NCBI GenBank assembly: GCA_040954595.2
Contig: CM082578.2
Coordinates: 1,222,831 to 1,286,830 of the forward strand
DNA from: Balanoglossus misakiensis
Taxonomy: Eukaryota; Animalia; Hemichordata
Direction of reading: 5' to 3'
DNA: 64,000 bases
Part shown: piece by piece, positions 23,656-50,700 of the stretch
How positions within the stretch are numbered: the stretch's first letter is position 1
Layout of the letters: each line of letters starts with the position of its first letter
The notes under the pieces: model-generated
Databases searched by the model: none
What the model was told of the DNA's origin: nothing
What the model saw: the letters and a program-made list of their open reading frames with translations, nothing else
Program-made: the position numbers and the translations under genes

Positions 23656-25720
23656 TAGACCATGAGCCAGTAGGGGTTTACCTCCCCCCCCCCCCCCCCC
23701 CCCCGGGGGAATTTTCGAGAAATGTGAGGTTTTGCAAAACATGTCTCTGTGCAATTGTACTGATGAAAACTGATGAAAACTGTGATGTGTTTGGTATCAA
23801 CAGAAAGCTGATTGAGTAAAGTATCTAATTATTGCAAAAAATTGATATAATAATCAATTACGTCATCATTACGTCATACTTCCAAGTACCCTTACCAATT
23901 AGTGACTATGATGACAAGTTATTACCCTAGGAGATAGGTGCCTTTAAATAAAAAAATTGGTAAGGAAGGTTTGTGAAGTCCATTCTAGTAAAAAATGGTG
24001 CTGATTCCAAAAAAGTCAGTCTTATTGACCCCACCCAAGAAAAAATTGCCATTTTAGCACTTTTTAACCCAAAAAATGTCATTTTTAGAAAACACTAAAA
24101 ACACACTGTTTTCATCACATTCGAAGATCTGATGACATATGATATGCCTATTCTATGTAAAATTCGGTTGATATTACGAAATAAGCAGTCTGACTGACCC
24201 CAAACGAGACAGAATTGCCTTTTTGACCATTTTTTGCCCAACAAAGTCATTTTTAGACAAAACTTAAAACACACTCTACTCTTCATATTGATTGATTTGA
24301 TGATATATGGAAAGTCAATTCTATGTGTAAAGTGGTGACTATAAAACATAAAGCAGTCTTTTTTGACCCCAATCAATACAAAAATGCCATTTTTGGCCAC
24401 ATTTTTGAGGTCAAAAAGGTCATTTTTACAAAAAAACCTAAAAACAAACTGTTTTCTTCATATTCAGAGATCTGATTATGTATGAAAAGTCCATTCTATG
24501 TAAAAAAAAAAATCTGATTGACCCCATTCTAGTCAAAATTGCGTTTTTGGCAATTTATTGCCTAAAAAGACCTACTGAAGACAAATTTATCATTTTAAAC
24601 ATTTTCTAGAGAAAAAATGTTTGCATTTGGAGATAGCCCAAATTGAACTCATAATGATGATGAAACAGCGTCGAGAGTAAAAGAAGTTATAAGAATTGAA
24701 CCAAAGTCACATCGATGAATCTAAACACGTCGCCCAGGACCAAGCATTAAACATGATACAGGCGACAAAAAGACAGGCACTGCACATGGCAAAGTCCCAA
24801 ATATTCACTTAGAGCATCTCCAAATTGAAACGTCAAGGAATTTAAGAGTTTTTAGTATATTTATTAGGTTTAAACCCACATTTTCCCTGTTGTGTTGTAG
24901 TTCAGGGGCCAGTTTTAGCTCTATTGAGTATTTAGCATCGTGGGATTGCACCCCTGTCCAATCAAAATGACGGAGGTATCATGATATAATATAATTTCTG
25001 ATTTTGTATTCCGAACGAAGAGGATAAATGTCAACAATCTATCCGGAGCTGGTATAGATGTACATAAAAAAATTTATACCATGTATAACCGACTTATAGT
25101 ATACAGTGTGAATACATGGATCGTCTCGTTTTATTGTTGAGTTCCATTTTAGGCTAAATGTGCCAAATTGTGGCAACTCTGCCTTTCAATATCATCAATT
25201 CAACTGATATCATATGGTATGACATTTTAAATATGCAAATATAACATCAAAACTCAAAAGGCAAAAAACACCAATTATTTTGTTTTCTGAAAAAGACAAT
25301 TGTTGACTAGAAGATGGCTTAGTGGCAATTTTGTATTGAGTGGGGTCTTAATAAGACTGTTGTGTTGGTATCAGCATATTTTTTGCAAAAAATGGACTTT
25401 CCATTCATAATCAAACATTTAAATACGAAGAAAACAGCTTGTTTTCATTTTTTCTTGAAATGACCTTTTTGACAAAAATGGCCAAAATGACAATTTTGTA
25501 GGGCTGAAAAGTATTTTTTTTTGGAATCGGCTCCCTTTCAACAAAAATGGACCTTCTCCGTACATCATAAGATCTCTGAAAATAAAGAAAGAAGTTTCAA
25601 ACAGTTACCTTTTTGAGTAAAGTGGCCAAAATGGCATTTTTTCCCTCTGTGGAGTCAGTAAGAGTGCTTTTTTGGAAAAATCGCTACTTTTAAGATAGAA
25701 TGGACTTTTATTTATTATTA
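23656..25720 (+). mobile_element. Truncated non-autonomous Academ-type element, same family as 47710-52069
   Basis: Starts TAGACCATGAGCCAGTAGGGG; collinear with 47710-49925 with indels; right TIR absent. Confidence 0.85.
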
Positions 25721-26454: not shown

Positions 26455-26912
26455 TAGTCTCGGTTACCCAGACGCCTTTGCTCTTCCGATGCTCTCCAGA
26501 AAAGGGGTCTGGGGAAATGCTATTGAAAGCTTTGTAAAACAAAATGGCCGATGTCAGGATTTTGATCATCGCCTGATTGGCTGAGCTGTCAGTATGACCC
26601 GGGTCACTGACTCTCGACAATGTGTGATTATTTGTCGTATCTTCATATCAAGAGACCGGTACTTGTTGGTTGATGCGAAAGGCAAAAGGCGTCCTCTGTT
26701 AGCATTGTTGGAGAAATTATATGAACTATCTTTGGTAGACGGTTGTCGAAACTATTGCAGTGACCCGGGTCATACTGACAGCTCAGCCAATCAGGCGATG
26801 ATCAAAATCCTGACATCGGCCATTTTGTTTTACAAAGCTTTCAATAGCATTTCCCCAGACCCTTTTCTGGAGAGCATCGGAAGAAGCAAAGGCGTCTGGG
26901 TAACCGAGACTA
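26455..26912. mobile_element. AcademH-type MITE (458 bp, ~155-bp TIRs, 9-bp TSD)
   Basis: TAGTCTCGGTTACCCAGACG...CGTCTGGGTAACCGAGACTA flanked by GGCGCTAGT at 26446-26454 and 26913-26921; TAG termini with 9-bp TSD fit AcademH. Confidence 0.85.
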
Positions 26913-27224
26913 GGCGCTAGTGCGTTCGCTCGCATATTTTGCAAGTCCAGCTGTAGCTAGGCCGTTCGTGAGTGTAGTTCTCGTTCACATAAAAAAAAAC
27001 ACGAAATAATTTATTGTGTGTTCGTTTAGGCCTATGCTAAATTATCCATACACTTTATTGTTCCATGACGCCCGTGGTCTAGCTAGCCCCACACCCTCTA
27101 GCGAATGAAGTAAATAAACATCATGAAAGAGATAGTGTTGGTCCCCCCCCACGCATTAGTACATACAAGGTAGCGAATTTTTGTGTTACATGTATCAGCA
27201 AAAAGCCCTACTTGTTGTCATCTA

Positions 27225-27406
27225 AATGGTTTCTGCGTGCATAAATTATAGAGCTGACATCAATGGTTTCTGCGTGCATAAATTATAGAGCTGACATCAA
27301 TGGTTTCTGCGTGCATAAATTATAGAGCTGACATCAATGGTTTCTGCGTGCATAAATTATAGAGCTGACATTAATGGTTTCTGCGTGCATAAATTATAGA
27401 GCTGAC
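27225..27406. repeat. 37-bp tandem repeat x5
   Basis: aatggtttctgcgtgcataaattatagagctgacatc repeated. Confidence 0.95.
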
Positions 27407-27686
27407 ACGTGCCCAATCCAGTTTGTGGTTCGGGTTACCGCACGTACGTAGGCCTACATCACTGTACGATACTGCTACAGCATGTAAAGCGCCTACAGAT
27501 CGGAGTCCTAGCCTCGCCCGTTCTGTTTTCTTTCAATGTTTTTTTGTTTTTTTTTGCGTGCATGTCATACAAAAGTTACATAATCTTTGTGTGCATGCAT
27601 CACAGTTTTACAAGAAGCTTACAATTAAACGATGGTCAATAAATATTAGCTCATGATATTTTTATCTGACTGTATTTTCATTTTGG

Positions 27687-28640
27687 ATGTACAGAACTAC
27701 CTCTGATGCGAGATTGCTGGTTAACCCTGACAGTGTAAAGGAATGGACAGATGATCTGAACCTTTTACCAGATGTTGAACTTCCAAGGGTTATTATGTTT
27801 TTATTTTCCAATGGGTGGTCTAAGTCAATGATCAATAATTACAAATTATCAGATGGATGGAAACTACATAATGATGGCCATGTCAATAAAGTAAGTTTCT
27901 ACTTGTATCTTGTTTTCCCATTTTTGCTTGAATCTCAGAATGTATATAGAAAAATAGTTTGAGTACAGTTTGCTTTACATGTAAATGCTTGTACACTATA
28001 GTTGTAGTGAATCTCCTGTGTGGGCTCATTGGCTTTGAGTCCCTTGTGCACACATCAAGCAATGATGATAGCCTGACGAATTCTTTGCTTCATATGATCA
28101 TTGATGTGTAGGAATAATGTAGAACATTATATATGGGTTAACCCACATTGCTAGCGCTGAGCTGGACCCAGTTTTAATCCAAGTTCTTATATGCATTGCA
28201 TCATAATTTGACCAACTTTTTTTTCCTTCTTGACAACTTCACTTGTGTTAGGTACAAATGTACAAGATCGATGACAGATTTATATATGTAAGAGGAGTGT
28301 GTGTCAGAGAAACTGAACAACAAGCTCTGTACAAGTTATGGGTGATTTTAGAGGAAGCAAATATCATGTCGTCATCTTGTGAATGCCCTGCGTAAGTAGC
28401 AACTAAATACAATTTCACACATTTATAACCAAAGTACGAATATGATGCATCCCGGTAATCATTTTTTTTTCAAACTTACTATCAGGCAATATCATTTTAT
28501 AGACAGTTAGCTGAATCAATTCATTGATGAAAACTGCATTTCTTGTCACAGGGATGACCAGGCGTGCAAACATGTTGCCGCCATGTTGTTTGGCTTATGG
28601 TCGTTTGGCGAGCGACACCAGGACAGAAACACTGTGGTTG
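27687..28640 (+). CDS. 5' exons (27687-27890, 28252-28391, 28552-~28640) of the ISL2EU accessory gene with SWIM zinc finger; interrupted by the Academ insertion
   Basis: GT-AG spliced frame reads ...YVRGVCVRETEQQALYKLWVILEEANIMSSSCECPADDQACKHVAAMLFGL (SWIM CxC-xn-CxH); frame stops at TAG 28664; true start may be further upstream. Confidence 0.75.
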
Positions 28641-31600
28641 CAGCCAGAACGCAACACCTTCATTAGCATATTATCGCCTATCCAGATCAGGACCGTTACA
28701 TTTTGAATGGCCGCTCACAGACCGTTTTTTGAGGCATTTTCAACTTGCCGTAACTTTCGTTAGAGTGCGTTATTTTAAATCATGTAAACGCGAAAACCTC
28801 CCCTGACATGTCTTATTTCGTGCCATCCAAATGGATTTTGGAATTATTTGCTGAAATATTGATATTACGGCGATTTTCCGAAGGTTACTTCAGCGGTCGA
28901 AAATATGGTCCAGTTTTTCACTTCCAGTTTCCATAATATGCCCCGGAAAGTTTACAGAATTCAGGGTAATGTGGGTTTTTGTACACTTTAAATGACCGTG
29001 TAAAGAAATTTGGTAAAGATACAAGTGCAACGGTCAGTTCAAGAATTTTCGCTAAAAAACGGGCGATTTTACCCGGAAGTCGTCACATGACCTACGTGAC
29101 CCGGTCCGTGACCCGAGGTTTCCAGGCCGGTGCTCGTAAATGCGGAAGTATCCCAGTTGCTGTTTGCAGTCGCTGTTTAACGCGATTTTGGACTCATTGA
29201 AAGAATCGGATTGATTTTTTTGTCGCTCAATAACGTTTTTCTTCTTTGTGAAACACTACAGTCGACGAAATCTGTAAGTATTTTATTCTTCAAGGCAATG
29301 CATGCATGAGTTGTGTGTTCGACGCGTCACAAGTAGATACTAGTACATGTAAATATGTTCTAATGTAAACTCAATTATTAAAGTAATGACACTTGACTAA
29401 GACGTAACTTCGGTTTATGTGGATTTTTAATGCATACACCCAGCCGCCAGTGGACAGCGTTCATCATGCATGTACATGTATAATAAAAAATCGATGGTTC
29501 ATGATACTTCTGAGTTTTGAAAGCAGGTTGTTATCACAACACCTCTTAGTTGTAGACCAAAAACAGGTAAACAAACAATTACATGAAAAAAACTAAACAG
29601 TTGAAATTTCATGTAAATTAAGCACATTATAGTCTCTCCAAAACTTGGTAGTTCTGTGCCCCTCTCATTTTCATGTCACAGGCAGAATCCCTGCATTATG
29701 AAGATGGCTTCATCACTTCTTACCATCGAGGTCAAAACAGATTCATGCGTGGCTAAGTTGACAGTCAGGTACTAACAAGATTGTTACATCCAACTTGAGT
29801 ACAAGTGTAATGATTGCACTTGCAGTACTGTTATATCAATTTTCATTATCATTACAATCAGCATAATTTATTTCATCACTACTGGAAAAGTCTATTTCTT
29901 CATTGCCTTCTCCCCAGTTATATTCATCAATTAAAACTTCATTATCAGAATCATTTTCCAGTATGCCTTGTTGCCCTTCAATCAATTGCTCATATTCTTG
30001 TGCTTCCTCCTGGATAATAACTTCAAGGTTTATGTCATTACTTGTACTAGCAACTCCAGTAGTGATAGAAGTTGACGATTCTGTCACTTCTCTAAATTTT
30101 GGACACATTCCTGAAGTTTTAGAGCCTGCACAAAATCCTGGTTCCAAGTTGTGTGGATTACTGCAGTCTTTGCAACGGCAGCCTGGACCACAATTTCTGT
30201 GTGCCTTAAAACATTTACAATTTCTCTTGTCACAAGTAGGCATTTTTTTACATCCACAACCTTTTGTCAAAACCTCAACATTCTGTTTGATTTTTGCTAG
30301 GTTTTCATCCGAATCCCACACTATACCAAGTGACCCATCAAGAGATATTGTATACCCATAGTCAGACAAACATGGAAAACTTACAGAGAACTCACTAGCC
30401 TGTGCCCACAATTGCGAAACCCAACATGATCTTTTCCAGTGCAGTTCCAAAGCTTCATATGAAGGAATGAAGTCTTCCTCATATTGAATCCGTGGCCAAA
30501 TTGCTTCACGTATGTGCGCCAGCCATTTCCTATGATTTATGTGAACAGTTTCATCTTCACTGGCTAGTTTTCTGTATAATTCCAGAGGAGTGGACACTTC
30601 AAATGCCTGTAAATGCTTCTTGAAATAGACAGTCCCAATGAGACGTAAGAATGAAAGCAACCCAAGATCCATATTATCTTCATTTGTATATGACAGCATA
30701 CCAGGAAGTACAGAGCCACTAGTTATAAATTCAGCATATTGCAGAAATGACTTATAGAAAAATAACTTTCCAATACCACAAAAAAAGGACACAAAATCAC
30801 AACCTGTACAAATGAAAAGCATCTGCAATATTTTACCAATAGATAGAGTTGGTATGTGTTGAAGATCTGGGTCAAATCTGAAATCAGATTTTAGTTGATT
30901 CATATCTAAATAGGTCAAATTAGAAAGATCATTATCCAGTTGAACAAATACCTCTTTCTCTACATGTTGATACAAAAAAGGCAACAGAACGTGGTAAGTA
31001 TCTGTATCAGGTGAATATATTACACCTTTCTTGTAAGGAGATATTACAGCATGGAGGACACACCGACTATCTGCCTCTTCATGACAACTTTCATTGCACC
31101 ATTCGTTGACCACACCCTCTTTATTTACACATAGACTCTTGTCTTTATTTTCTCCATCAAACCCACCAGCTGTAATGAAAACTTGATCTCCTTGTAAGGC
31201 AGGAATGATCTTTCTCAAACATGCCTCTGATAAAAAGTTCACCAACTTTCTTTTGCTTGGCCTGTGGCCTATCAATTTCCTCCAATTACTAGGAAGATCA
31301 GTGGTCTCTCTTATGTCATCTGTGGCATTAGTATCCTCAATGTTTTGGTCCCTTCTTGCTCTCTCAATGTCCTTTGGACTAGGTCCAAGTCTATTAGGAT
31401 CATCAAATAAAAGGTGGACTTCAAAGTAGTGTTGTCTAAAATGAGGTACAAGCCAGCGTCTGACAAAGAAATCAGCATACTGACCGAATGTGGTATGAGC
31501 TGCAAGTGGGGCCTTATTTATTAGGAACATACCATCCAGAATCATGAACTGTCCCTGCCAGCCAAGGGGTAAATAATCTTTGATGACTTTATTGTAACGA

Positions 31601-34600
31601 GATTTGAAAAACCTAGTCACATTACTCTTTTGTCCTTTATATGGCAAACCCTCAGCCATGCAGATTGCACGTGGGAACATGATAAATTGGTCTAAACTTT
31701 GAACAGGTTGGCCAGTTTTCTTTGACTGTGCAATTTGAATTTTCAGACAGGCTGTCACTGTTCTGTGATCTTTGTCACCCCTTTTCGATTTTACCCGTTT
31801 TATTATTTTACCAGAAAATGTTTTGAGGCGGCGCTTTCTGACAGATGTGTCAGCACTGGGCTTATGCATTATTCGAACCCTAATATATGCATCTAGGTCT
31901 TTCTTTCCAATGTCTCGGAATGATAACAAGTCTTCTTCAATGATTTTATCAGCCTCAATCTCCAAAAACACATTTCGTAAACATTTCATACTGGATTGGG
32001 AAAAAATATCTGTTGTTTCAATTGCAGTAATGTATAACCTACAATTGTCCTCATGAACTTTATGTACACTTCTAAAGCTACCCTGCTGTGCTTGGCTTGG
32101 AAACAACTGTGTTTTTAGATTTTTGGCTGCCATTGCTCTGTATGGAAGATATAATGTTAACCTCTCCATTATTCCTTCAGCTGCTGTATGGATAGCAACT
32201 TTAACATCTTTATTTACACCCATTTCGTGAGCTTCATCAAGTGCTACATTAGTCCATTTTGACCCAGAAAAGTTACACACGAAACCTCCTGATTGTAAGT
32301 GTTCTAAGAGAGATGCTGGCATTTTCAAAACATCAGCAAGATGTCTAGGAATCAATCTCAAATACAGGGATCTGTCAAACGCATGAAAGAGAGGACACAT
32401 TTTCTTTAAAGCAGACATTCTGAGGTTCCAGTTTCCTGACCTTATAGCTATATACAAGGCAATATAGGAAAAGCAATCTTCCTGAATGAATCTCAGCCAA
32501 AATTGAAATGTACTGTCACTCTCAGACTTCTTTTTGCAATACACGTGAAAGTCTTCCTCTAGTCCTACTAACCTGCTTTGGAGGTCACTGTAAATTTGAC
32601 ATATAGAGTCATCATGTGTTTCAGAGTTGAAGTATTCATGGGCTTTGATAGTTGCATCTAAAATACAATCATTTATGGATTGTGTGTCAAGAGGGCAATG
32701 ATACTCAGCCTCTGATGCTTCTTGATGATGATACTTTAAAAAAGATTCAATCAAACAACGAAAGAAACTTTCCCAGACTTGAACTAGGAAACGATGAGTG
32801 AGTTTAAAATTTGTACACAAAGCCAGTGTCTCTAATGTACCACCCTTATGGTTAAACCCAGCAATTTGTTTCAAGCCAGCATCCCAAAATATTTTCATCA
32901 GGACTGGCTGATAGTTCTTCAGTGTGTGCCAATCACCAATAAATGGTTGTAACCAATCCAGATCGACACCGTACATGTCTTTCAATCTGACAAGATGATT
33001 GAATGTCTTGCCGTCACCCACTACTACCAGGTATTTTAACCTTATTTCAACTTTAAATGTTTGGTATAGCCTATTGATAACAGCATGAACAGTCTCTATA
33101 GAATCAGCATGTTCACTTGAAAGACCAAGATACAGCACCTTTGAACTTTCACATTCGGTATTGTTAATTTCTGAACTTAGCTTAGTTTTGAAGTCTGGTA
33201 ATAGAATATCAGAGTTAGATCTATGTGTAAAGTTTTTCTGCAAAATGAAAGTGAATGCATCAGAGTACAATTTTGACCATGCATTACTTTCACCTGGGCT
33301 TATGTCAAAATCTTGTAGGGAAATATTAGGAGAAGGGCAATGTTCTCTTATTAATGGTGGTTTGAATACATGTGTAGTATCTTGGTTTGCTTGGCTACCT
33401 TCAGTAAAAGTTCGCTTCTTTTTTGATGGTTTACATGATGAACTGTCACTACTAGTGTTTGGCAGGTCAGTACACCCATACTGAGCTGAACTGAGAATTT
33501 TTTGCATGTTGTATTCTTTCATTTCCATTGTACAAAAATTGTCATTAATCTCCTGCCATCTAGTGAATGAATTGTCAGTTTGTTCATTAAGTAAACTCTC
33601 TTTACTATTTATGAGTTGCCGATTCAACAGCAAGTCATAGTGTCCTGGTTGACCTGGCTGGTCAGGAGTATATAGTAAACAAACTGGCTCAGTATTAGTA
33701 AAAAAATCTCCAAAAGTTTCCCCTCGTACGAAGTTGTTATTTTGTTTTGTGTAAATGTGAAGAGGACATTTTGATACAAAAACAACACACATCATTTCTG
33801 GCATTCCAGCATACTCATCAGTTTTCTTCATACATTGTGCTCTGTGGAGTATATCCATATACCTATTCCCATCCAACAGAACATCAAGATGAGCATCTGA
33901 TAATTCATCAAAATATGCATGATTGGCTTGGAGAATGTCTGCAGTGTCAACTCTCAACCTATCAGCAAGCACTCTCTCCCTCTCAATCAGTGTGTGATCA
34001 CTGGGAAGACCATTTCTTTGACGGTTACACTGACGCAATACATAATCATTCCTGATAGCAATGCACCTAAAAAAGCACCTGCCATCACCAAAGATCTTAA
34101 TAAGTTTTAAGTCTTCAATTTTTGAGTGTATGTCAACACTACCAAACACCAAATCATCAGCTGTGTTTGTTATTGTCTTTGGCCTTGGTTGCACCATTTG
34201 ATATGAGGTCCCATGAAAACCTCTGGCGTTTTCATCTGACCTTACCACTGCATATTTTGCGGACTTATCAATGTTATCAATGCTAGTCACTGCAAATGCA
34301 TTACTTAATATGTTGTTTTCTATAAAAGTATCTGATTTTCTGTCCTCTATGACAGATACCATATATCTGTGCAAAGTATCAACAGAGCTGACTAAACCAA
34401 ATCTATTTAAAATTTTCATTAAAGTAGTAGAACCACTGTATCCTTCCACAATATCAGCCAAATACAAATGGAGAGGATAGCAACATTCATCAACACACGT
34501 ATACAGCAACAAACATACAGAGAAGAGTCGTCTGAGAAATCTAGCTCTACTATCCATGGATGATTTGTTGTAGAATTCTAAATAATGAATGTTCCAATCA

Positions 34601-37600
34601 AAATATGATCTCCTCAGTTGTTTACGTTCTGTACTGTTCACTGTCAGATATACTATAGTGTTCCATAATATTGGATCAATTTCAAAAACAAGTTTTTCGA
34701 AATCAATGATGCTCATATCATATTTCTCATTTTTTAGATATTTTACAAATTCATGGGCTTGTTGATAAAGCTTAATATTTAAATTATCAACAACCACATC
34801 AAGCATGTTGAAAAAGTCAACATCTGCCTTACCCATGTCTCTCATCCTTTGTTGTAAGCATGTAATTTGTTTTTCAGAAGATATAATATGTTGGTTGTAT
34901 TCGACAAGTAAAGTGTGCAAAGCTAATGTTAAGTCAGACCCAGTTCTGTACATAAGAGTTGAGAAGTTCTTGTTGGCATGAGTCTTTATAGATAGATGAG
35001 AAGGATAAAAGATAGAAAGAAGTTCGCGGAGAAGCCAGCTGTTTGATTTCTGGAAGGAATAAAATGGTTGAGTTGACTCATCAACTTGCATTACTTTATA
35101 CTGCTTTTCCAATTCCTCATTGAAATGTTTCTTAACATCCACCAAAAGTATTGCATGCTTTCTGAGAAGAATCTCTCCAAGAAATACAGCAGTTTCACTC
35201 AAAGCACAAGATACTATATTTGTTTCATCACAACATCCCTTTTCTATAATTAATCTATGTTGGGACATAATCTCATTCAAATCTGAGTTGTCTGACATTG
35301 CCATGCCTTTCTGGATATCTTGCGTAACTTTTTTTGCCAACTCAGTGAATGTTTTGTAGCACTTTACGCAAACTGCACAGTTCTCTGTGAGTGAAAATGG
35401 TGTGCCACTTTCTTTATAGAACCTGTCAACATTTTTAAATTCTGGAATTTTTGATAGGTTACTTTTTTTTGTCTTTGTAAGACAAGAAGAGCAGACACGG
35501 AAAGATCTTCTCATAGCATGAAAATAGTGAGATGCACATAGTGGATATGACCCCTGGTTCTGAAAAGGTGTAAAATCCACAGAAATGTTTTCACAGAGGA
35601 CTTTGAATGCATCTAAAGAACAATCATGGTCACTTTCATTTTCACAAAGACCAACACCAACTAGAATACATGTAGAAAGCTTTCTTTTTCTTGTTGCACA
35701 CTTATAGTTTGGGTCCTTAAAAGTTCGTTTTAGCGTCATTCTACATGCATCACATATACAATCTGTATTTTTCAGATTATATTCACTATCCAAAAACAAC
35801 TGTAGATCTTCTGGCCAATCAAAAGCATGATTATATCTTGGCTCATCTGTTTTTCCACAGTTTTTACAGGAAGTACACACTCTTCCTGGGTGGATTTTCT
35901 CCCAAGGTTTTTTCCTTGCCCCACCTCTACTATGGAAATGTGCTACAAATTCACTGCTTCGAATTGGTACCATAGTATCATCAGACAGTCTTTTGCCATT
36001 GATACACAGACTGAATTGATCACTTGGTACTGCTGTGTGGGACTGAACAATGTGTTTTAGGTCTTTGATGGTATGAAAGATAGACACCTTTACATTTATG
36101 GATCTATCACTAACTGAAACTGTATGGTAAGTTTGACCATTGAGGAAAAGAAGAAAGGAAGATAGAGCTAGAAGACACGCACATTGTGCAAGTACATTTG
36201 GATCATGTTTTCTGACCTGGTCTGTTGTTATACGAGTATTTACTATTTTGCAATTTTTCCGAGATGAAAGTTTTGTTTCAGTACCTTGTTTAATATTCAA
36301 AAAGACCAAAAGAGAAGAAAGAGCAAGAAGTATTGCTACCTGAGTAAGAACAATCTCGTGTTGTGTTGTGTCATGAATGTCTGCACTATGTTTTGCCTCC
36401 CAACTTTGTCCGTCTGGCAATATATTTTCATCAACTGTCGGTTGCCGAGGACAGGAACTGTGGGGATTGTGTTGTGTTACTTGATCTATTTGTACGGGCA
36501 ACAGAATATTAAACGATGACAGCAAAGATATGGAGAGATTGCAAAAGCAGATGTGGTGTAATAAAGAAAATAAAATAACAATTTCCTCAACAACAAAACC
36601 ATAACCCACAAATACATCTGGGAAACCAACAATACAGCAAGTTACAACCGATGCAACCAGAAGTTTAAAAACAAGTTCACTTGACTGTGTGTCATGTAAA
36701 GATTCACTGGTATCACACAGATTTATTGACTGATATCGAGGCTGTTTGGTTATTTCACAAGACTTTGGTCTGGGTAGGTAGCAAGAGGGAAAGCAATAGC
36801 GATGCACACAGTATAGGATTACTTCCAAACTCTTTAAGAAATAAAATATAAAAAGAATAAAATAAATAATGAAGAAAATAAAAAGGAATGGGAAAAGCAA
36901 AATGAATAAAACAGAAATCAAATCAAAAACTACTTGAAAGAAGCAAGTACTGTCAATCGGGCTAGGAGAATCACTCCTTGTGCCACCATGAACCGTATAA
37001 GGTTGGTCTTTATTCTCAAACAGACAAACATGGTCACAAAGATACAATAGTCCAAAGAAGACTAATGTAATAAAATAGCAAAACCGATGTCTCGCTGAGA
37101 TTATCATTTTAAACAATTTCAAAGTTTGATATTTGACTGTCAGAAAAGTATTCGTGAAAATATAATACAATATTAAAAGATAAATAACTATGTTCTTAAC
37201 TAGCAAAATAAATACAGTAGCTAAAACAAAACTGTCACTGCGAACTGATGAAGGTAAGCTTCTTCTTTCAAGTATCCAACACTGACTAACTGGGAAAATC
37301 TGTAAATTCCAAAACTGCAAACTCCAAACAGACGAACCTGCAATATAAAAACAACACAGCTGACACAATGCGTACACAGTACAGACTGGGAACTACGAAG
37401 ACAAATTTGTACTAGTTTCTGTAAACCATACATGTACCAGGATGTAATGAACAGACGTGTTCGTTATCTCAGTGTTCGAGTTTAATAGCGACAACGCTCA
37501 GCTCGAAATGTAATTTAACTCTTGAGTAATCTATGTTAAATCGGTCCAAAAAACGTAGTTTAGGCAGATCTCGACGATCACCTTTAAATTTCACAAATAT

Positions 37601-38285
37601 TGGGTACCATGTTTGTTTTAAAAGTCGATATAAAACGAACTCATTTCCAATATGTGCATTTATCAACACTACATGTGGGACGTGGAACAATACACATGCT
37701 GCACTGAACGCTCGCTCGACATGGGCCACGTAGTAAACTCCCGCCATTTCCCACCGAAAATGACCTCGTCACGGCAAAAAGTAAACAAACTTTAAATCTT
37801 CATAACTTCGTTAATATGCCCTGGAAAGTATACAAACTTCACAGGGAAAAGGGCCAATGTCTATATTTTATAAATATTACTTCGGATTTGTACAACAACT
37901 TGGTGCAACAGTCCGTTCAAGAATTTAGCGAGGCATGTTTCGACAACGTGAATTTTCATTACTCTGTACTTTTCGTTATTTCTCTGAAACTATTGCATTA
38001 ATCATCAAAAATACTTCCGAAGATATAGTTCGATATACGTACCTTTACATTAATCCAACAAAACTTCTTATAACGCTCTCCGTTTCCAGCGGGCAATGGC
38101 CAAAGGTGGGGAAAAAACTGACCCAATTCACACACCCTCTTTTGGGCTCAGTGTAACGACCTCGTTTTTGATTTACATTGCATGGCCTGTATTTCCCATG
38201 ATGCCCGGTGATGATCAAGCCTCGCTTCTGTAGTTTTGCTGACTCGTGTTGTGCATGCATTAAAGTTGTTCTTTGAGTCAACCTG
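28641..38285 (-). mobile_element. AcademX-like autonomous DNA transposon nested in ISL2EU (ends tentative)
   Basis: Single 2513-aa ORF with DDE, XPG-like and Cys-rich domains; separates the SWIM and YqaJ exons; candidate ends TTG|CAG...CTG|TTG. Confidence 0.7.
29836..37377 (-). CDS. 2513-aa Academ-type transposase: hydrophobic N-terminus, ubiquitin-like domain (RGG), Cys/His zinc modules, DDE core with inserted OTU protease, XPG/FEN1-like nuclease, CXC tail
   Basis: IDNID..GFHGT, VGDGKT..IGDWH and LDEAHEM (DDE); GDGRCFFR..GHYDLL (OTU); LDGMF, HEEADSR, SPDTD, GCDFVSFFCGIGK (XPG/H3TH); CGCKKMPTCDKRNCKCFKAHRNCGPGCRCKDCSN (CXC); uninterrupted 7.5-kb frame. Confidence 0.9.
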   Translation of the reverse strand: MYALCQLCCFYIAGSSVWSLQFWNLQIFPVSQCWILERRSLPSSVRSDSFVLATVFILLVKNIVIYLLILYYIFTNTFLTVKYQTLKLFKMIISARHRFCYFITLVFFGLLYLCDHVCLFENKDQPYTVHGGTRSDSPSPIDSTCFFQVVFDLISVLFILLFPFLFIFFIIYFILFIFYFLKSLEVILYCVHRYCFPSCYLPRPKSCEITKQPRYQSINLCDTSESLHDTQSSELVFKLLVASVVTCCIVGFPDVFVGYGFVVEEIVILFSLLHHICFCNLSISLLSSFNILLPVQIDQVTQHNPHSSCPRQPTVDENILPDGQSWEAKHSADIHDTTQHEIVLTQVAILLALSSLLVFLNIKQGTETKLSSRKNCKIVNTRITTDQVRKHDPNVLAQCACLLALSSFLLFLNGQTYHTVSVSDRSINVKVSIFHTIKDLKHIVQSHTAVPSDQFSLCINGKRLSDDTMVPIRSSEFVAHFHSRGGARKKPWEKIHPGRVCTSCKNCGKTDEPRYNHAFDWPEDLQLFLDSEYNLKNTDCICDACRMTLKRTFKDPNYKCATRKRKLSTCILVGVGLCENESDHDCSLDAFKVLCENISVDFTPFQNQGSYPLCASHYFHAMRRSFRVCSSCLTKTKKSNLSKIPEFKNVDRFYKESGTPFSLTENCAVCVKCYKTFTELAKKVTQDIQKGMAMSDNSDLNEIMSQHRLIIEKGCCDETNIVSCALSETAVFLGEILLRKHAILLVDVKKHFNEELEKQYKVMQVDESTQPFYSFQKSNSWLLRELLSIFYPSHLSIKTHANKNFSTLMYRTGSDLTLALHTLLVEYNQHIISSEKQITCLQQRMRDMGKADVDFFNMLDVVVDNLNIKLYQQAHEFVKYLKNEKYDMSIIDFEKLVFEIDPILWNTIVYLTVNSTERKQLRRSYFDWNIHYLEFYNKSSMDSRARFLRRLFSVCLLLYTCVDECCYPLHLYLADIVEGYSGSTTLMKILNRFGLVSSVDTLHRYMVSVIEDRKSDTFIENNILSNAFAVTSIDNIDKSAKYAVVRSDENARGFHGTSYQMVQPRPKTITNTADDLVFGSVDIHSKIEDLKLIKIFGDGRCFFRCIAIRNDYVLRQCNRQRNGLPSDHTLIERERVLADRLRVDTADILQANHAYFDELSDAHLDVLLDGNRYMDILHRAQCMKKTDEYAGMPEMMCVVFVSKCPLHIYTKQNNNFVRGETFGDFFTNTEPVCLLYTPDQPGQPGHYDLLLNRQLINSKESLLNEQTDNSFTRWQEINDNFCTMEMKEYNMQKILSSAQYGCTDLPNTSSDSSSCKPSKKKRTFTEGSQANQDTTHVFKPPLIREHCPSPNISLQDFDISPGESNAWSKLYSDAFTFILQKNFTHRSNSDILLPDFKTKLSSEINNTECESSKVLYLGLSSEHADSIETVHAVINRLYQTFKVEIRLKYLVVVGDGKTFNHLVRLKDMYGVDLDWLQPFIGDWHTLKNYQPVLMKIFWDAGLKQIAGFNHKGGTLETLALCTNFKLTHRFLVQVWESFFRCLIESFLKYHHQEASEAEYHCPLDTQSINDCILDATIKAHEYFNSETHDDSICQIYSDLQSRLVGLEEDFHVYCKKKSESDSTFQFWLRFIQEDCFSYIALYIAIRSGNWNLRMSALKKMCPLFHAFDRSLYLRLIPRHLADVLKMPASLLEHLQSGGFVCNFSGSKWTNVALDEAHEMGVNKDVKVAIHTAAEGIMERLTLYLPYRAMAAKNLKTQLFPSQAQQGSFRSVHKVHEDNCRLYITAIETTDIFSQSSMKCLRNVFLEIEADKIIEEDLLSFRDIGKKDLDAYIRVRIMHKPSADTSVRKRRLKTFSGKIIKRVKSKRGDKDHRTVTACLKIQIAQSKKTGQPVQSLDQFIMFPRAICMAEGLPYKGQKSNVTRFFKSRYNKVIKDYLPLGWQGQFMILDGMFLINKAPLAAHTTFGQYADFFVRRWLVPHFRQHYFEVHLLFDDPNRLGPSPKDIERARRDQNIEDTNATDDIRETTDLPSNWRKLIGHRPSKRKLVNFLSEACLRKIIPALQGDQVFITAGGFDGENKDKSLCVNKEGVVNEWCNESCHEEADSRCVLHAVISPYKKGVIYSPDTDTYHVLLPFLYQHVEKEVFVQLDNDLSNLTYLDMNQLKSDFRFDPDLQHIPTLSIGKILQMLFICTGCDFVSFFCGIGKLFFYKSFLQYAEFITSGSVLPGMLSYTNEDNMDLGLLSFLRLIGTVYFKKHLQAFEVSTPLELYRKLASEDETVHINHRKWLAHIREAIWPRIQYEEDFIPSYEALELHWKRSCWVSQLWAQASEFSVSFPCLSDYGYTISLDGSLGIVWDSDENLAKIKQNVEVLTKGCGCKKMPTCDKRNCKCFKAHRNCGPGCRCKDCSNPHNLEPGFCAGSKTSGMCPKFREVTESSTSITTGVASTSNDINLEVIIQEEAQEYEQLIEGQQGILENDSDNEVLIDEYNWGEGNEEIDFSSSDEINYADCNDNEN

Positions 38286-38343
38286 TTGTGTACTTCACTG
38301 ATGGACCCGACACTACAGACAACATATTTATATTTTGTTTCAG

Positions 38344-39160
38344 ATGGAAACGTGTGTGTGACAGAGATTCACTTGCCAGCCGCTACTTGTCAGACAGTGA
38401 CTCTGAAAGTGATGACGCTCATTTACCAACATTTACAGAAATTTGCAGGAAACATAAATTAAATGGGGGGATTGAATCACTTGCGTCAGAATATACCCAG
38501 GATCTATGTAATTTAATTGAGGAAAGCACCAGGGGTCAAGCAACCAATCAAGGGTGGGTTAATCAGAGGGTTGGGAGAATTACCGCCAGTTTAGCTTATA
38601 AAATTGTTCATGTTAAAAATCAATCATCCAATCATTCAATTCTTAAATCCATTCTTAATTGTAATCACTTCTCAGGAAATTTTCAAACTGAATATGGCAT
38701 AGAAAAAGAAAATGTTGCTAGAAGTTTATATTTTATAGAAAATGAAAAAACGCATAAAAATTTTAAAATATGGGAAACAGGGTTATTTGTTGACCCAGGT
38801 CAACCACATTTTGGGGCAAGCCCAGATGGCATGGTTGAATGTCAGTGTCATGGGAGGGGGGTAATAGAAATTAAATGCCCAAGCATTGGTGCCGAGTGTG
38901 ATTTACAAGAATACGTGAAACTGAAAAATAATGTCAGCATGGACCAAAACAAAAATATTCATCTCGAATCTGGTCCATGGCTGACCCAAATTCAAATGCA
39001 GATGGCAATAGCCAGGGTGGAATACTGTGATTTTGTTTTGTATTTAGGAAAGCATCCATATGTTCATGTAGAGAGAATATACCGTGATAAAGAATTCTGG
39101 GATTTGTTAAGCACCAGATTGACAGATATATTCCTTTCTTGGGTGTTTCCAAACATTTAA
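38344..39160 (+). CDS. Terminal exon: YqaJ/lambda-exonuclease-like domain of the ISL2EU accessory protein
   Basis: TRGQ..W...R.GRITAS, YG..E, TGLFV, GASPDG, EIKCP and QIQMQM motifs (PD-(D/E)xK fold); acceptor ttttgtttcag ends at 38343. Confidence 0.9.
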
Positions 39161-39429
39161 AGAGAAATTTGTTGCCACTGTAAATTTTTGAGTGTTGTGT
39201 TTTGAATCCGGTAATAAATAACAGTTTTACCCCACATGAATTATAACATTCATTTCTCTGAGTGGTTTCTGGGGAAAAAGACAGCAATACAATCTTTTCC
39301 ATGAGAAAATTTATTTTAGGGGACAATTATGCTGTAAATGAAAAAAAGAAAAAGCGCAAAACAATAATTTTCTTGATATATTATATTTATTTGCATTTCT
39401 GTCATTTTGTTGCACCAGAATTGCGAATG

Positions 39430-42400
39430 TTAATTCTTCACAAGTGGTTCATAAAGATTGCACAGTGCTGCTGCAACTATCAACATCTGATTGGTAACAG
39501 GTTTTAAGAGACAATGGTATGATTTGAGATAAAAGGGAATTTTTTTTTATTCTTTCAATGGCTCTCTCAACATGGATTCTCAATCTGGCAATATCACGAG
39601 TTTTCACAATTTCTTTCAAACTAAGATGTTTACCCTTTCCCCATGAACATTTACGTGTGAACGGTGGAATTGCAAGATCTGCATGCCTTTTCAAACATAA
39701 ATCCCTTATCAAAAAACCCCTATCAGCCATGACCAAGTCCCCCCTTTCAAGCAAATCAATTATACCACATTCCTTAGTAATGTGTCGATCAGATGCATTC
39801 CCACCCCACAACTTTGAAACAAAACTGATGAAGCCATCTGGTGTTATACCTATAAGAGCTTTACATACTGTATTTCGTGATTTGTAATTAGAGTATGTTA
39901 TATATTGTGCTTTGGGCATTGATGGTTTTTGTATATAAAATTCTGTGCAATCAATGATTACTCTGGTCGTTCTATACTTTGACTTAAAACTACGAGGCAA
40001 GTTTTTCGACACACGTCTCCTGGATGGCCATTTCAGAAGAGGAGACATAGCTGACGACAATACATTAATCCATGTTATGAACACCTGGGACACTCGAGTG
40101 GTTGATGTACCAAACATGTCAGCTAAAATAAACAAAGACAATCCCACCCGTAGCCTCATGAGTGTCCACATAAACTCCTGAAAAGGACTGAGTTTTCGCT
40201 GTCTTCCTCGTTTCCTGGGTATGGTTCCTCCATTGTTCTCTTCCCTGAAAATTGGCCAGCAATAAATCATTATGTTGGGATAAAAGCAAGTGATGAGTGA
40301 AACAAAGTTCATGAAGGTACACCATCCCTATCCTAGCGAAGAGTTTCTGATGGACAAATGGTCAGAAAAACATGCATGAATAGAGCCCAGCAAGTTATCC
40401 ATCATCTTAAAGGGCTGCAAACAATTTACATATGCCAATATATGGTTAGAGGAGTTTCTAAATAATAGATAAGCTTTTCGCAAAGTCACCTAGGGAAAAT
40501 ATGTCATTGGCTAGATACATGCACAATGATATGGTCAAACACTATCTCTTTCTGACACAGAATCAAGTAACAAATGATTGAGAAATAACAAAAAAAATGG
40601 AAATATTAACTGAGACTAGGTTTTCCTTGCCAGTATTTTATATTTGTTGATGACGATGCAATATCAAAAACATCAGTAAGTTGGCTTCTTGATTTTATAC
40701 CTACAGTATGTAATAAGAAATTATCTAATTATCAGATTTCACGACAAAATAAAAAATTCACAAGTTCATGGCACACAACTCATTGGCCTCTATCACTATT
40801 CCAAGCTTTAGCCCGGTAGCTGCTATGGTTTTCCAGATTGACCATAGGCCCTTTAGGCACGGGCCCCTAAAAAACACTACAAATACAGACAGCAGATATA
40901 CCACTCTTCACTGTAAAATGAGGAAAACAGTGAAGTCATTGCCAAGTCTAAGCTTTTTTCCAATATGTACCATATACATGATTTCCATAGCTAACCTGTG
41001 TATTTCATGCAGCTTTTATCACTTTTCAGCAAACAATCCACAGTTAAATCGCGCCGTAATTTATCTTTATCACTCAAGACATTCTCCAGTTCATTTACCC
41101 TTTTTTGTAAAAATATATTGATTTCTTGGGCTTGCTGCAGATGTGACCCTTGAACAAAAAATTAAAAATTTGTTAATTTTAAGTTCCATTAGCTGTAACT
41201 CTTTTCTATGTTTAAGCAAAATGTACATGTACAACAATTTACTTCCTGAAGAGGATATGATCATTTATTTGTACAACAACAGTGATAATAAGGTTGTATA
41301 AAATATCCTTTTTTAAAACAGACAAATTTATATAAAAATATTGACAATGAATTAAAAGAAAATATCAATAATCATCTATAAAAATGAGCTTTGAGTGTTA
41401 AAGACAATTAATACTATACTTTACCTGTAATATCTGTTTGGGTAGCAACAGACACACCAGAACTATTTTCATTCAGATCAGTTCTACAGTAGGCATGATC
41501 ATCACTTGGAGGATTGGTGATATCAAAGACTGCATCTATGGTAAAGTTTGACAAAATGATCAGAACCATATATTATCGTTGACATATTCCTTTCACGAAA
41601 CTACAGTCATTTGGCCAATGTTTAGGTCCAAAAATAACTGAAGGTCACAACAAGACCAAGTACATTTCAATTCGAACGAACGAAAGCGATGCTATCATCA
41701 TTATCATGCGCAGGTGTTGTGCCGAATTCGGCCCCTTGCCGAATACGTCCCCGCGCATGCCTTGACAAACAAACCATGGCTTCTAAGGGATAAGATCGGC
41801 AGGTAAAGCTGCTGATTTCAGCCCCGTTGCCGATTAAGACCCCAACTAAAGTCATGTTAACTATTGAAAGCTAAAAGTGATGGTTTCGGCCTAAATAGGT
41901 GAATATCTGCCCATGGCCCTGATTTGTTGGTGGAATGAAATTAAATCCTTGCGGTAATGCAATGTCCAAGTTTACAGTGCAGTACAATGTACATTCATGC
42001 ACAGCCTTACATGCACGTTGGATGGCAAAACTTTCACACAAGAAAATGCAATATTTCAGACACATGTTACTGATGACCCGAGCATGCGCGGGACGTATTC
42101 GGCATGGGGCCGAATTCGGCACAACACCGGCATGCATTGAACACATGGCGGCGTAGACGCGCTGATTATCACACGCGTAGACGTGAACAAGCGCGCTGTT
42201 GATATCACCGTGGTTTTGGCATCCGCGTTTGTGAATGGTGACCAGTTTTCGTTAGGTTACAAGAGACAATACATTTTTCTCTTCAAATTATCAGCGTTTT
42301 CATATCCTAGCAATATTCATGCCGACAGAAAGAAAGTACGGCAAACGAGAAACTTTTGTCAATGACCAGATCGGTGATCGTAAATGTTTTAGTACGTTGT

Positions 42401-42985
42401 GATAACGAAAAGTACATGAGACAACCACTGGTATTTTCACACGTCATTTGACGGGTGCACATGGACGTTCAAAGCGGTATACATGTAGTACTTACATTTG
42501 GTGGACACAGACGGGTGACACGTTTGGCTTCCGAGGCAGCAGTCAGCAGAAACTCCAGACGTGGGTCGGCAACTGGTCGCAAAATCTACCGTCTGCTCAG
42601 CGGCGGCCTGTACCGTGTGTACCGGTACATCGTAAATCCGTTGGCGTTGCTGCCACAGGTTTCGTGGACGTAATGATTCTGATGAATTCCGTTGCCCCCA
42701 GTCATTATATGCAAATTTATGTGGGACGATGTTGTGCTTCCAGTCACCCGTTGACGGAACATTATGTTCATCGAAATGGCGTGAACATAACCTTGAAAAC
42801 TTGTTGGGAATCCAAGATGGTTCCCGGTGGCACGCTGATATCCACTTTCGGCGAATATTATTCTGGTAAATTCGATGCGGAAATGCGTGGAAAGTCACTC
42901 CTGACATCAACGGGTACTTATCTAAATTACGCAACTTCCATGTATGGGATTTGCAACCCGTAACTGCGCATTGAAACTCGGGCAT
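39430..42985 (-). CDS. Spliced ISL2EU transposase (THAP, coiled coil, HTH, DDE_Tnp_4); exons ~42985-42496, 41535-41425, 41148-40996, 40700-~40611, ~40245-39430; 1-nt frameshift near the C-terminus
   Basis: THAP MPEFQCAVTGC..FHAFP..W..LCSRHF; DHAY, VATQTD, KYTG, KYWQG; LMRLRVGL..LADMFG; IIDCTE, MADRGF, RIHVERAIERIK; tail NQMLIVAAALCNLYEPLV lies in another frame; exon 4/5 junction uncertain. Confidence 0.85.
41715..42126. mobile_element. Ginger-like MITE in transposase intron 1 (TGT...ACA, ~45-bp TIR, 4-bp TSD CAGG/CCGG with one mismatch)
   Basis: TGTTGTGCCGAATTCGGCCCC ... GGGGCCGAATTCGGCACAACA. Confidence 0.7.
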
Positions 42986-43649
42986 TATCCTAGCAACCGC
43001 AGGTCACTTTGTAAACAATACAGTCGGAAAGTGTCCTACCCTTCAAGCGGTAGGACAAACATTTCGCACACTGCGCAAGCGCACTAGATCAATTCTCGCG
43101 AGAGTTAGTTATTCGGGAATCAGGAATTCTACCGCTGGCTGCGCTGTCGCAGTGACCTTAAGCCAGGTCAAATTTGAGCTAAAAGACAAGTTCCGTCGAC
43201 ATACTCATGAATATTTCTTGGTTTCTTCGCGTATAAACTCGGGAATATTATGCCCCTGAAGCCTGGGCTGGCTTTGATGCACGTTATCGAGTATTAATCA
43301 GTCAAAGACCCACGGTAGCAAAGTAGGTAATTGTCTTTTTTCACGCGGATCCTTTGGTCATATATTCTGCATGCCTACAGCCCCACATTCGCTGATATTG
43401 CCATCTTTCTCGATAGTTATTATAATATTTAGCTAGAGACGGCCTTGTATACTCTGAATTTTAGACTAGGAATGACTCAGCTGGCATATCGTACCACTTT
43501 TTCTGTGACATTGCCGACCGGCCCGGCGCAACTACCGAGAAAGGGTACGGGTGTGCTCGTGGGAATTGTCAACTACCCGTTCATCGTTCGACTGCTCAAC
43601 ACAGATCATTGATAACACAATGTCACATTTCGAACTAATTTTGGAATTC

Positions 43650-47709: not shown

Positions 47710-50700
47710 TAGACCATGAGCCAGTAGGGGTTTACCTCCCCCCCCCCCGGGGGAATTTTTGAGACAATGTTTTTCTGAAAGCCTATCATATACTGAGTAA
47801 AATTCACTTTGTTTGCCATCTGGGCACCGGGGCGTTTTCGAGTTATTGGCTTTTAAATTATATTGGGTAACGTATGTAGAAAAGCCTAAAAGTGCATATA
47901 AATTGACGTAGGGGGGTAAATTAGTCTTGTAAAATACTGTCTCTCTGAATGTATACCTAGAACAACAGGGAAGTATTTGGTATCAAAAGAAAGCTTAATA
48001 AACAAGCTTTCCATTAATTACAAAATTAAAGTGATATGACAAATCATGACATCATAGTGACGTCATAAGTCAAAATACCCTTACGAAAATGGTGTTCTGT
48101 TCACCTATAATTTGCATAAATGTGAGGTTTTGCAAAACACGTCTCTGAGCAATTGTACTGATGAAAACTGTGATGTGTTTGGTATCAACAGAAAGCTGAT
48201 TGAGTAAAGTATCTAATTATTGCAAAATATTGATATAATAATCAATTACGTCATCATTACGTCATACTTCCAAGTACCCTTACCAATTAGTGACTATGAT
48301 GACAAGTTATTACCCTAGGAGATAGGTGCCTTTAAATAAAAAAATTGGTAAGGAAGGTTTGTGAAGTCCATTCTATGTAAAAAATGGTGCTGATTCCAAA
48401 AAAGGCAGTCTTATTGACCCCACCCAAGACAAAATTGCCATTTTGGCACTTTTTAACCCAAAAAAAGGTCATTTTTAGAAAACACTAAAAACACACTGTT
48501 TTCGTCACATTCGAAGATCTGATGACATATGATATGCCTATTCTATGTAAAATTTGGTTGATATTACGAAAAAAGCAGTCTAACTGACCCCACCTAAGAC
48601 AAAATTGCCGTTTTGGCACTTTTTAACCCAAAAAAGGTCATTTTTAAAAAAACACTAAAAACACACTGTTTTCGTCACATTCGAAGATCTGATGACATAT
48701 GATATGCCTATTCTATGTAAAGTTTGGTTGATATTACGAAAAAAGCAGTCTAACTGACCCCACCTAAGACAAAATTGCCGTTTTGGCACTTTTTAACCCA
48801 AAAAAGGTCATTTTTAAAAAAACACTAAAAACACACTGTTTTCGTCACATTCGAAGATCTGATGACATATGATATGCCTATTCTATGTAAAATTTGGTTG
48901 ATATTACGAAAAAAGCAGTCTGACTGACCCCAAACGAGACAGAATTGCCTTTTGGACCATTTTTTGCCCAAAAACGTCATTTTTAGACAAAACTTAAAAC
49001 ACACTCTTCTCTTCATATTGATTGATTTGATGATATATGGAAAGTCAATTCTATGTGTAAATTGGTGACTATAAAACATAAAGCAGTCTTTTTGACCCCA
49101 ATCAATACAAAAATGCCATTTTTGGCCACATTTTTGAGGTCAAATAAGGTCATTTTTACAAAAAAACTAAAAACAAACTGTTTTCTTCATATTCAGAGAT
49201 CATGTGATATAATATAATTTCTGATTTTGTATTCAGAACGAAGAGGATAAATGTCAACAATCTATCCGGAGCTGGTATAGATGTACTTAAAAAAATTATA
49301 CCATGTATAACCGACTTATAGTATACAGTGTGAATACATGGATCGTCTCGTTTTATTGTTGAGTTCCATTTTAGGCTAAATGTGCCTTTCAATATCATCA
49401 ATTCAACTGATATCATATGGTATGACATTTTAAATATGCAAATATAACATCAAAACTCAAAAGGCAAAAAACACCAATTATTTTGTTTTCTGAAAAAGAC
49501 AATTGTTGACTAGAAGATGGCTTAGTGGCAATTTTGTATTGAGTGGGGTCTTAATAAGACTGTTGTGTTGGTATCAGCATATTTTTTGCAAAAAATGGAC
49601 TTTCTATTCATAATCAAACATTTAAATACGAAGAAAACAGCTTGTTTTCATTTTTTCTTGAAATGACCTTTTTGACCAAAAATGGCCAAAATGACAATTT
49701 TGTAGGGCTGAAAAGAATTTTTTTTTTGGAATCGGCTCCCATTCAACAAAAATGGACCTTCTCCGTACATCATAAGATCTGAAAATAAAGAAAGAAGTTT
49801 TCAAACAGTTACCTTTTTTGAGCAAAGTGGCCAAAATGGCATTTTTTCCCTCTGTGGAGTCAGTAAGAGTGCTTTTTTGGAAAAATCGCTACTTTTAAGA
49901 TAGAATGGACTTTTATTTATTATTAGATCACCAAAGGGAAACAAATAGCATGTTTTTAGTATTTTCTAAAAATGACCCTTTTTGGGCAAAAAGTATTTTC
50001 ATCTTCATTGAGATCAATAAGATTGCTTTTTCTAGAGTCAACAGCAATTTTTCAATAAATGGACTTTTCATACATGATCAAATTTCCAAATATAAAGAAA
50101 AACGTTTGCTTATTTCTTAAAATGGCCTTTTTGGGCAAAAACTTGCCAAAAAACGCACTTTAATCTTGAGTGGCGCCAATAAACCTACTTTTTTGAATAC
50201 CTACCAAATTTTACACAAGGTGGGTATACAATACATTATCAGATCTACGAAAGTGAAGAAAATATATAAGTTTTGAGTGTTTTCTAAAAATGACATTTTT
50301 GGGGCAAAAAGTGGCAAAAATGGCACATTTGCCTTGAGTGGGGGTTAATAAGGCTGCTATTTCTGGAATCAGAACTATTTTACATAGCATAAACTTTTCA
50401 TATATCACATGATCTCTGAATATGAAGAAAACAGTTTGTTTTTAGTTTTTTTGTAAAAATGACCTTATTTGACCTCAAAAATGTGGCCAAAAATGGCATT
50501 TTTGTATTGATTGGGGTCAAAAAGACTGCTTTATGTTTTATAGTCACCAATTTACACATAGAATTGACTTTCCATATATCATCAAATCAATCAATATGAA
50601 GAGAAGAGTGTGTTTTAAGTTTTGTCTAAAAATGACGTTTTTGGGCAAAAAATGGTCCAAAAGGCAATTCTGTCTCGTTTGGGGTCAGTCAGACTGCTTT

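Follow-up and report, generated by a model that had tools for sequence, protein, structure and literature searches.

A conserved Gly-Gly junction behind a ubiquitin-like domain in AcademX-type transposases, a predicted processing site in an element of Balanoglossus misakiensis

We analyzed a 64,000-nt stretch of the genome of the hemichordate Balanoglossus misakiensis (assembly GCA_040954595.2, contig CM082578.2, positions 1,222,831 to 1,286,830, forward strand), hereafter called the window, whose minus strand carries one very long open reading frame (ORF) with the features of an Academ transposase (Table 1). The transposase is preceded by a hydrophobic leader and a ubiquitin-like domain (UBL) that ends in Gly-Gly (GG), and a domain with the fold of OTU proteases is inserted into its core. 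Comparison with related sequences supports the view that GG is a conserved junction at which the plain transposase starts. The original prediction for this locus had described an intact, intronless ORF of 2513 codons. The frame is indeed free of stops, but "intronless" holds only in the sense of an uninterrupted frame, and an ATG does not appear before codon 91 (nt 37107), which gives a product of 2423 aa. The motifs lie where that prediction had placed them: HSRGG at aa 482-486, GDGRC ending in C1101, and GHYD containing H1246. Codons 1-90 contain no Met, and an acceptor-like tract, read by eye, lies near nt 37338, so that the start at this ATG is provisional. The 323 codons that follow the first ATG (aa 91-413) would stay open by chance with P ~4e-9, as calculated from base composition, and for this part we rejected the possibility that the leader is T-rich non-coding DNA, while codons 1-90 stay uncertain. 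Among the 23 best-supported substitutions listed for the ORF in the contigs of one other sample, 12 are synonymous, 11 are non-synonymous and none introduces a stop, a balance that is a weak sign of purifying selection.

Table 1. Features of the Academ element and of the interrupted Kolobok-type element (positions are those of the window)
Feature	Position	Strand	Basis or remark
Uninterrupted reading frame, 2513 codons + stop	29836..37377	-	translation
90 open codons ahead of first ATG; coding status uncertain	37108..37377	-	P(open) ~0.002
Hydrophobic leader, aa 91-413, seven transmembrane-like segments	36139..37107	-	no informative Pfam family
UBL, aa 414-486, ends HSRGG	35920..36138	-	Pfam PF00240; PDB ubiquitin matches
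Gly-Gly, predicted cleavage site	35920..35925	-	invariant in 15/15 UBL-bearing sequences
Predicted mature transposase, aa 487-2513 (2027 aa)	29839..35919	-	starts at Met of leaderless relatives; cleavage inferred
Conserved Cys/His modules (HPG..CxxC..CxCxxC), approximate extent	35308..35898	-	
D1034, first acidic residue of DDE-type core (SIDNID)	34276..34278	-	invariant in 24/24 rows
OTU-fold insert, aa 1088-1251, slot between first and second D; C1101, H1246, D1248	33625..34116	-	
D1455, second acidic residue (VGDGKT)	33013..33015	-	invariant
E1718, third acidic residue (DEAHE)	32224..32226	-	invariant in both alignments
FEN1/XPG-superfamily nuclease region, approximate limits	30598..31575	-	structure model + Foldseek
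Tesmin/TSO1-like CXC domain, aa 2372-2407, end of folded part	30157..30264	-	Pfam, PDB profile match
Candidate insertion extent, CAG...CTG ends, candidate 3-bp target-site duplication TTG	28641..38285	.	right end tentative
SWIM-like part of interrupted Kolobok-type element	~28550-28640	+	
YqaJ/lambda-exonuclease ORF of interrupted Kolobok-type element	38264..39160	+	
DDE_Tnp_4 transposase ORF, same Kolobok-type element	39449..40312	-	
THAP ORF, same Kolobok-type element	42437-42985	-	

The core region matches the Pfam family DUF6589. D1034, D1455 and E1718 (motifs DN, GD and DExHE), which we take to be the catalytic triad, are invariant in the alignments, while P0041, a relative outside both of them, has K at the position of E1718; fold search did not show an RNase H fold for the DDE core. 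The nuclease was identified by fold search, because the whole-protein profile compared with PDB matched the CXC domain only: the model of the C-terminal half of the ORF (predicted local distance difference test, pLDDT, 87) has Foldseek matches to XRN1/2, EXO1, FEN1 and Rad2 (best E 4e-6). No helicase family, the feature that sets AcademH apart from AcademX, was found in the ORF, and positions 28641-38285 contain no further ATG-initiated ORF of at least 150 aa, although a spliced gene is possible. With invariant D/D/E residues, a FEN1/XPG-fold nuclease and a CXC tail in one protein, the Academ(X) identity claimed by the original prediction is supported, and on sequence and model evidence we regard the window ORF as an AcademX-type transposase. 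It resembles the AcademX elements, as far as the available excerpt of their description goes (PMC10045372), in that a single large ORF combines the DDE-type core with the XPG/FEN1-fold nuclease and a Cys-rich tail, with no helicase seen. It differs from them in the leader with UBL-GG and in having an OTU or pseudo-OTU inserted into the DDE core; that excerpt mentions neither feature.

The UBL itself is recognizable by sequence. Residues 405-495 match Pfam ubiquitin (PF00240) with 27.4 bits against a cut-off of 25.4, and in a sequence search of PDB the domain aligns with ubiquitin and with Ub-S27a as far as about residue 80, which confirms the ubiquitin-like domain ending HSRGG that had been read from the translation. 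The terminal GG falls in register with G75-G76 of ubiquitin. The ESM Atlas gave no usable match for the query UBL with its zinc module.

Relatives were collected from three sources: a core search, which yielded forty long homologues (those with a species name belong to mussels, echinoderms and an annelid), a full HMMER search, of whose 1401 matches the best 150 were used (183 proteins in total, including the query), and a metagenome scan, in which 80 of 135 loci were kept. A word-indexed homologue search with aa 400-1300 returned none at E 0.001 among 3868 candidates, and the 59 pattern matches in viral contigs included no relative. A UBL-like domain ending in GG is present in 12 of the 183 proteins and three of the 80 loci, i.e. 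in 15 sequences representing 14 families. Their UBL-like domains have a median pairwise identity of 16%, and the two glycines alone are invariant (15/15). In Pfam, the ubiquitin matches of P0008 and L024 fall below the cut-off, and L005 and L051 have no match. All 15 have G, A, V, M or S directly after GG; these are stabilising N-terminal residues under the N-end rule. A quick tree built from 83 core sequences (P0002, P0085, P0104, P0108 and other core-poor rows excluded) requires at least three changes of the UBL-GG label, which hence is either old or was gained more than once.

Since GG itself had helped to find some of the UBL carriers, we added checks that are blind to it. One was anchored on the zinc module and used 76 rows, near-copies included, with a long leader defined as at least 70 in-frame residues upstream. 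GG is found within 18 aa upstream of the anchor in 10 of 13 long-leader rows as against none of the 63 rows with a short leader, and in 49 of these 63 a Met occurs in that stretch; the background rate of GG is 2.9% (128/4447 windows). The Fisher p for the long- versus short-leader comparison is 3e-10, an overstated value because the rows include near-copies. This distribution points to a processing site that frees the transposase from a variable leader. Searching 10,179 sequences with a GG-free UBL profile yielded not one complete UBL in which GG is missing, and leave-one-out profiles of the same kind recovered seven of the 15 UBLs at an independent E-value (iE) < 0.3. The UBL-GG might instead serve mainly for something other than release, if the freed leader-UBL were conjugated to host proteins, or if an uncut UBL limited the level of transposase as a proteasome-targeting or chaperone module. 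The surfaces of UBLs that are E1 substrates are well conserved, unlike the surface of these domains with their 16% identity, and the coincidence of GG with the start position of leaderless proteins is explained more simply by release. We thus hold such a role to be improbable, although a C-terminal GG is described as the signature of UBL conjugation in the available part of PMC8354635 and the varied leader modules may have jobs of their own.

The leaders ahead of the UBL are mutually unrelated across the carriers. The original prediction of a membrane-bound leader agrees with the seven transmembrane-like segments of the window ORF but does not extend to the group, as such segments occur in six of the 15 leaders and are absent from nine. 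Other carriers have an SGNH/GDSL esterase-like domain (P0032, aa 1-170), a NADAR domain (P0078, aa 36-183), acidic repeats (repeats are seen in P0046) or a short leader. It is conceivable that leader and UBL are bypassed by splicing or by an internal start (M469 lies within the UBL), GG being a relic, and separate upstream reading frames, probably exons, do exist in L010 and L032. However, the window leader is open well beyond chance expectation (see above), L005, L024 and L051 each have a single long frame across leader, UBL and core, and a relic GG would not remain invariant at 16% identity; in our judgement a bypass has little chance of being correct.

Several further features of leaders were observed. 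In the window ORF, aa 340-413 (window 36140-36360) contain, directly before the UBL, two alike hydrophobic segments (LAQxAxLLALSSxLxFLN-like), whose resemblance suggests an old duplication; no match was found at the DNA level. In L010 (436-1527) and L032 (23-1039) an SGNH/GDSL esterase-like domain occupies a separate frame upstream of the Academ transposase. In six relatives without UBL (P0002, P0004, P0005, P0020, P0102 and P0134) the conserved Met is preceded, in frame, by a short stretch that resembles a signal peptide; these stretches may be real leaders, or else T-rich untranslated or intron sequence that was read along with the frame. In a UBL-less clade (L010:2904-2930, L032:2039-2120, P0023, P0043 and P0143) a short AGV[KR] motif opens the basic N-terminal region, and may mark either a splice junction or a further cleavage site.

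The insert between the first and second D was identified as an OTU domain mainly by its predicted structure. Pfam OTU matches it weakly (E 0.18, model positions 2-128) and a PDB sequence search with the window OTU gave 0 matches. In its AlphaFold model (pLDDT 87), all listed Foldseek matches are OTU domains, including OTUD1, Otu2, DUBA and viral OTUs (best E 6e-6, TM-scores ~0.55-0.67). Five relatives (P0019, P0027, P0039, P0045 and P0050) score above the Pfam OTU cut-off, and the motifs GDGRC1101 and GH1246YD1248 are common to the window OTU and the intact relatives. The OTU domain with intact Cys and His of the original prediction thus stands, with its fold taken from the model and with C1101, H1246 and D1248 present. 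In most relatives the slot holds 35-150 low-complexity residues instead. A side finding concerns P0090, which is not a transposase and combines a Mab-21-like region with three degenerate copies of this OTU family, and is perhaps derived from such elements.

Analysis of the OTU state among UBL-GG carriers, scorable in 13 of 15 (the other two are fragments), reveals that the two features need not go together. Five carriers have an OTU with intact Cys and His (P0001, P0027, P0042, L024 and L051), four have a degenerate one (P0038 and L005 by profile, P0032 and P0085 by alignment only), and four have none (P0008, P0046, P0078 and P0041); the proposed co-retention of GG with the OTU Cys/His is therefore not found. 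The decoupling persists among the seven stringently called UBLs, where P0008 and P0041 lack the OTU and that of P0038 is dead. Conversely, L010, L032 and P0043 have an intact OTU and a long leader in which no UBL was detected. As GG occurs without a live OTU, and an intact OTU without a detected UBL, neither domain needs the other.

These observations bear on the central idea of the original prediction, self-processing. In the wider form considered by us, the cut after GG would be made by the OTU of the element itself, either in cis or, supplied by sibling copies, in trans, and OTU-less families would borrow the protease from siblings or host. UBL-GG and intact Cys/His do occur together in five carriers, including the window ORF, and an OTU or its relic is found in nine of the 13 scorable carriers, while short-leader relatives mostly have a short insert, a comparison uncorrected for phylogeny. 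A divergent UBL might also need a dedicated protease, and OTU-family enzymes can act both as polyprotein protease and as deubiquitinase (available part of PMC3744425). However, GG is kept in eight of the 13 carriers although their OTU is dead or absent, which speaks against cleavage by the own OTU as a general rule, and three sequences have the intact OTU without a detectable UBL. Moreover, for the OTUs of Ginger1 and Helitron no fused UBL is mentioned in the portions of the reports at hand (PMC2836005, PMC9741609). Self-processing therefore appears unlikely to us, if less so than conjugation or bypass. A predicted complex between OTU (aa 1084-1256) and UBL (aa 414-490), made with neither alignments nor controls, scored 0.00 twice and is evidence neither way.

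The reading we prefer, and consider somewhat better than even on the basis of sequence comparison and analogy, is that leader, UBL-GG and transposase would be made in one chain as a precursor, which a ubiquitin-type protease, probably a host deubiquitinase, would cut after GG, freeing the nuclear enzyme. The cutter is probably a host enzyme because GG outlives the OTU, and the host deubiquitinase that the original prediction had offered as an alternative appears to fit better than the own OTU. Such a cut would yield an N-terminus equal to the start-Met N-terminus of leaderless relatives and would separate the enzyme from any upstream fusion, here the predicted membrane segments. In the window copy, the hydrophobic leader would keep an uncut precursor at a membrane, and this retention could gate nuclear entry. 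The OTU, which occupies a slot of the DDE core that varies among relatives, would be a separate and optional accessory that the cut does not depend on, and it likely acts on host ubiquitin chains, e.g. to protect the transposase. A bolder version, which we think doubtful, depicts an old animal AcademX lineage with a private UBL tag as its cargo port, at which upstream fusions (membrane anchors, SGNH esterase, NADAR) would be removed after synthesis in a common chain. In OTU-intact ancestral elements, the window element among them, the cut would come from the own OTU, with the transposase membrane-held until then, and such an element would be a self-processing, protease-gated cut-and-paste transposon.

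A number of points weigh against release by a host deubiquitinase. Eight of the 15 UBLs were called by position and pattern and are weaker calls than the seven recovered by profile. Nine of the 15 carriers read GGG, hence it is the alignment that places the exact bond and the residue after it. The UBL tails (FHSRGG, PGLGG, PLKGG) are unlike the LRLRGG of ubiquitin, so that recognition by host deubiquitinases is not assured. Among the OTU-less carriers, P0038 and P0041 are gene models of decayed copies, and short-leader proteins produced by gene callers may lack upstream exons. Finally, families that have no OTU could have their GG cut in trans by the OTU of a sibling element.

The ends of the element are less well defined than its coding part. 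On the left, contigs break at 28640 and CAG starts at 28641, while the candidate right end, CTG at 38285, is tentative; with this end the duplication would be TTG (3 bp) and the empty site would be in frame. The terminal inverted repeats (TIRs) of the window ends show weak similarity, and a direct search between the end regions found no clear inverted repeat. Three leaderless multi-copy families have CAG...CTG ends with a perfect 4-bp target-site duplication (TSD) in 11 of 14 copies. Such 4-bp TSDs in relatives agree with AcademX, for which the excerpt of PMC10045372 gives TSDs of 3 or 4 bp. Short stretches at 28934-29048 and 37812-37926 are shared in direct orientation with a single offset of 8878 bp. 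In both end regions the contig depth is much higher than in the ORF, and there may be derivatives that are nested or non-autonomous.

The Academ element interrupts a Kolobok-type element that spans window positions 27099-43100 (components in Table 1). By its lambda-exonuclease partner the latter resembles KolobokE; an assignment to KolobokP was rejected, since that partner defines KolobokE in the excerpt of the literature on this group. Its high contig depth suggests that it is present in many copies, and it contains a 422-bp insertion (41710-42131) with 42-nt TIRs that resembles a miniature inverted-repeat transposable element (MITE). A 458-bp MITE at 26455-26912 with TAG...CTA ends has long TIRs that are nearly perfect and is flanked on each side by a 9-bp duplication, the TSD length given for AcademH. 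Positions 47740-52041 are occupied by a foldback-type element with a large inverted repeat (912 nt, 99%) that consists of ~170-bp tandem units, and 23769-25490 by its partial second copy.

Comparison with known systems, made from the accessible portions of the papers cited in this paragraph, indicates which part of the architecture is new. Ubiquitin-type proteases are known in Ginger1, Mutator and Helitron transposons (PMC2836005, PMC9741609, PMC6431247), and the VTDs of Helitrons have been shown to be active deubiquitinases (PMC2836005, PMC9741609), which makes the OTU alone a modest addition for Academ. As in Ginger1 and Helitron/Helentron, the transposition protein carries a ubiquitin-type cysteine protease (OTU, Ulp1 or VTD). 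Those elements, however, belong to other superfamilies, no fused UBL-GG is mentioned for them, and in Ginger1 the protease is C-terminal, not inside the catalytic core. The new part is the conserved UBL-GG junction, and no description of a UBL-GG/OTU Academ architecture was found in the literature searched, which did not include the AcademH paper and Repbase, where these domains may be listed. The closest cellular parallel is FUBI-eS30, cut by USP36, together with the ubiquitin-ribosomal protein precursors cut by UCHL3, USP9X, USP7, USP5 and OTULIN (PMC8354635). There too a divergent UBL with GG stands ahead of a basic nuclear protein; it is removed by host deubiquitinases, as would be the case in Academ under the preferred reading, and the Academ-leader profile matches Ub-S27a across the junction. 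Those fusions, however, are housekeeping genes of the host and start with the UBL, whereas in the window element, a mobile one, a variable leader precedes it and its position is internal. In cytopathic pestiviruses ubiquitin is inserted before NS3 and cut by the host (PMC8310069), so that a genetic parasite uses internal ubiquitin as a host-cut signal to obtain the authentic N-terminus of an enzyme, as we infer for Academ. The virus has an RNA genome and a recently captured true ubiquitin, unlike the DNA transposon with its old, highly diverged UBL. The PRO/DUB of Turnip yellow mosaic virus likewise is an OTU-family domain within a polyprotein (PMC3744425), but its self-processing has been shown, whereas the comparative data for Academ argue against dependence on the own OTU.

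Cut-and-paste transposases are usually viewed as single finished proteins. If the processing model is true, a whole lineage of them uses polyprotein processing, like RNA viruses and ribosomal-protein genes, and its transposition is tied to host deubiquitinases. The model would also explain how N-terminal cargo can be swapped without disturbing the enzyme. Comparison of GG>AA with OTU Cys>Ala variants would offer a handle on the question why transposons keep acquiring ubiquitin and SUMO proteases.

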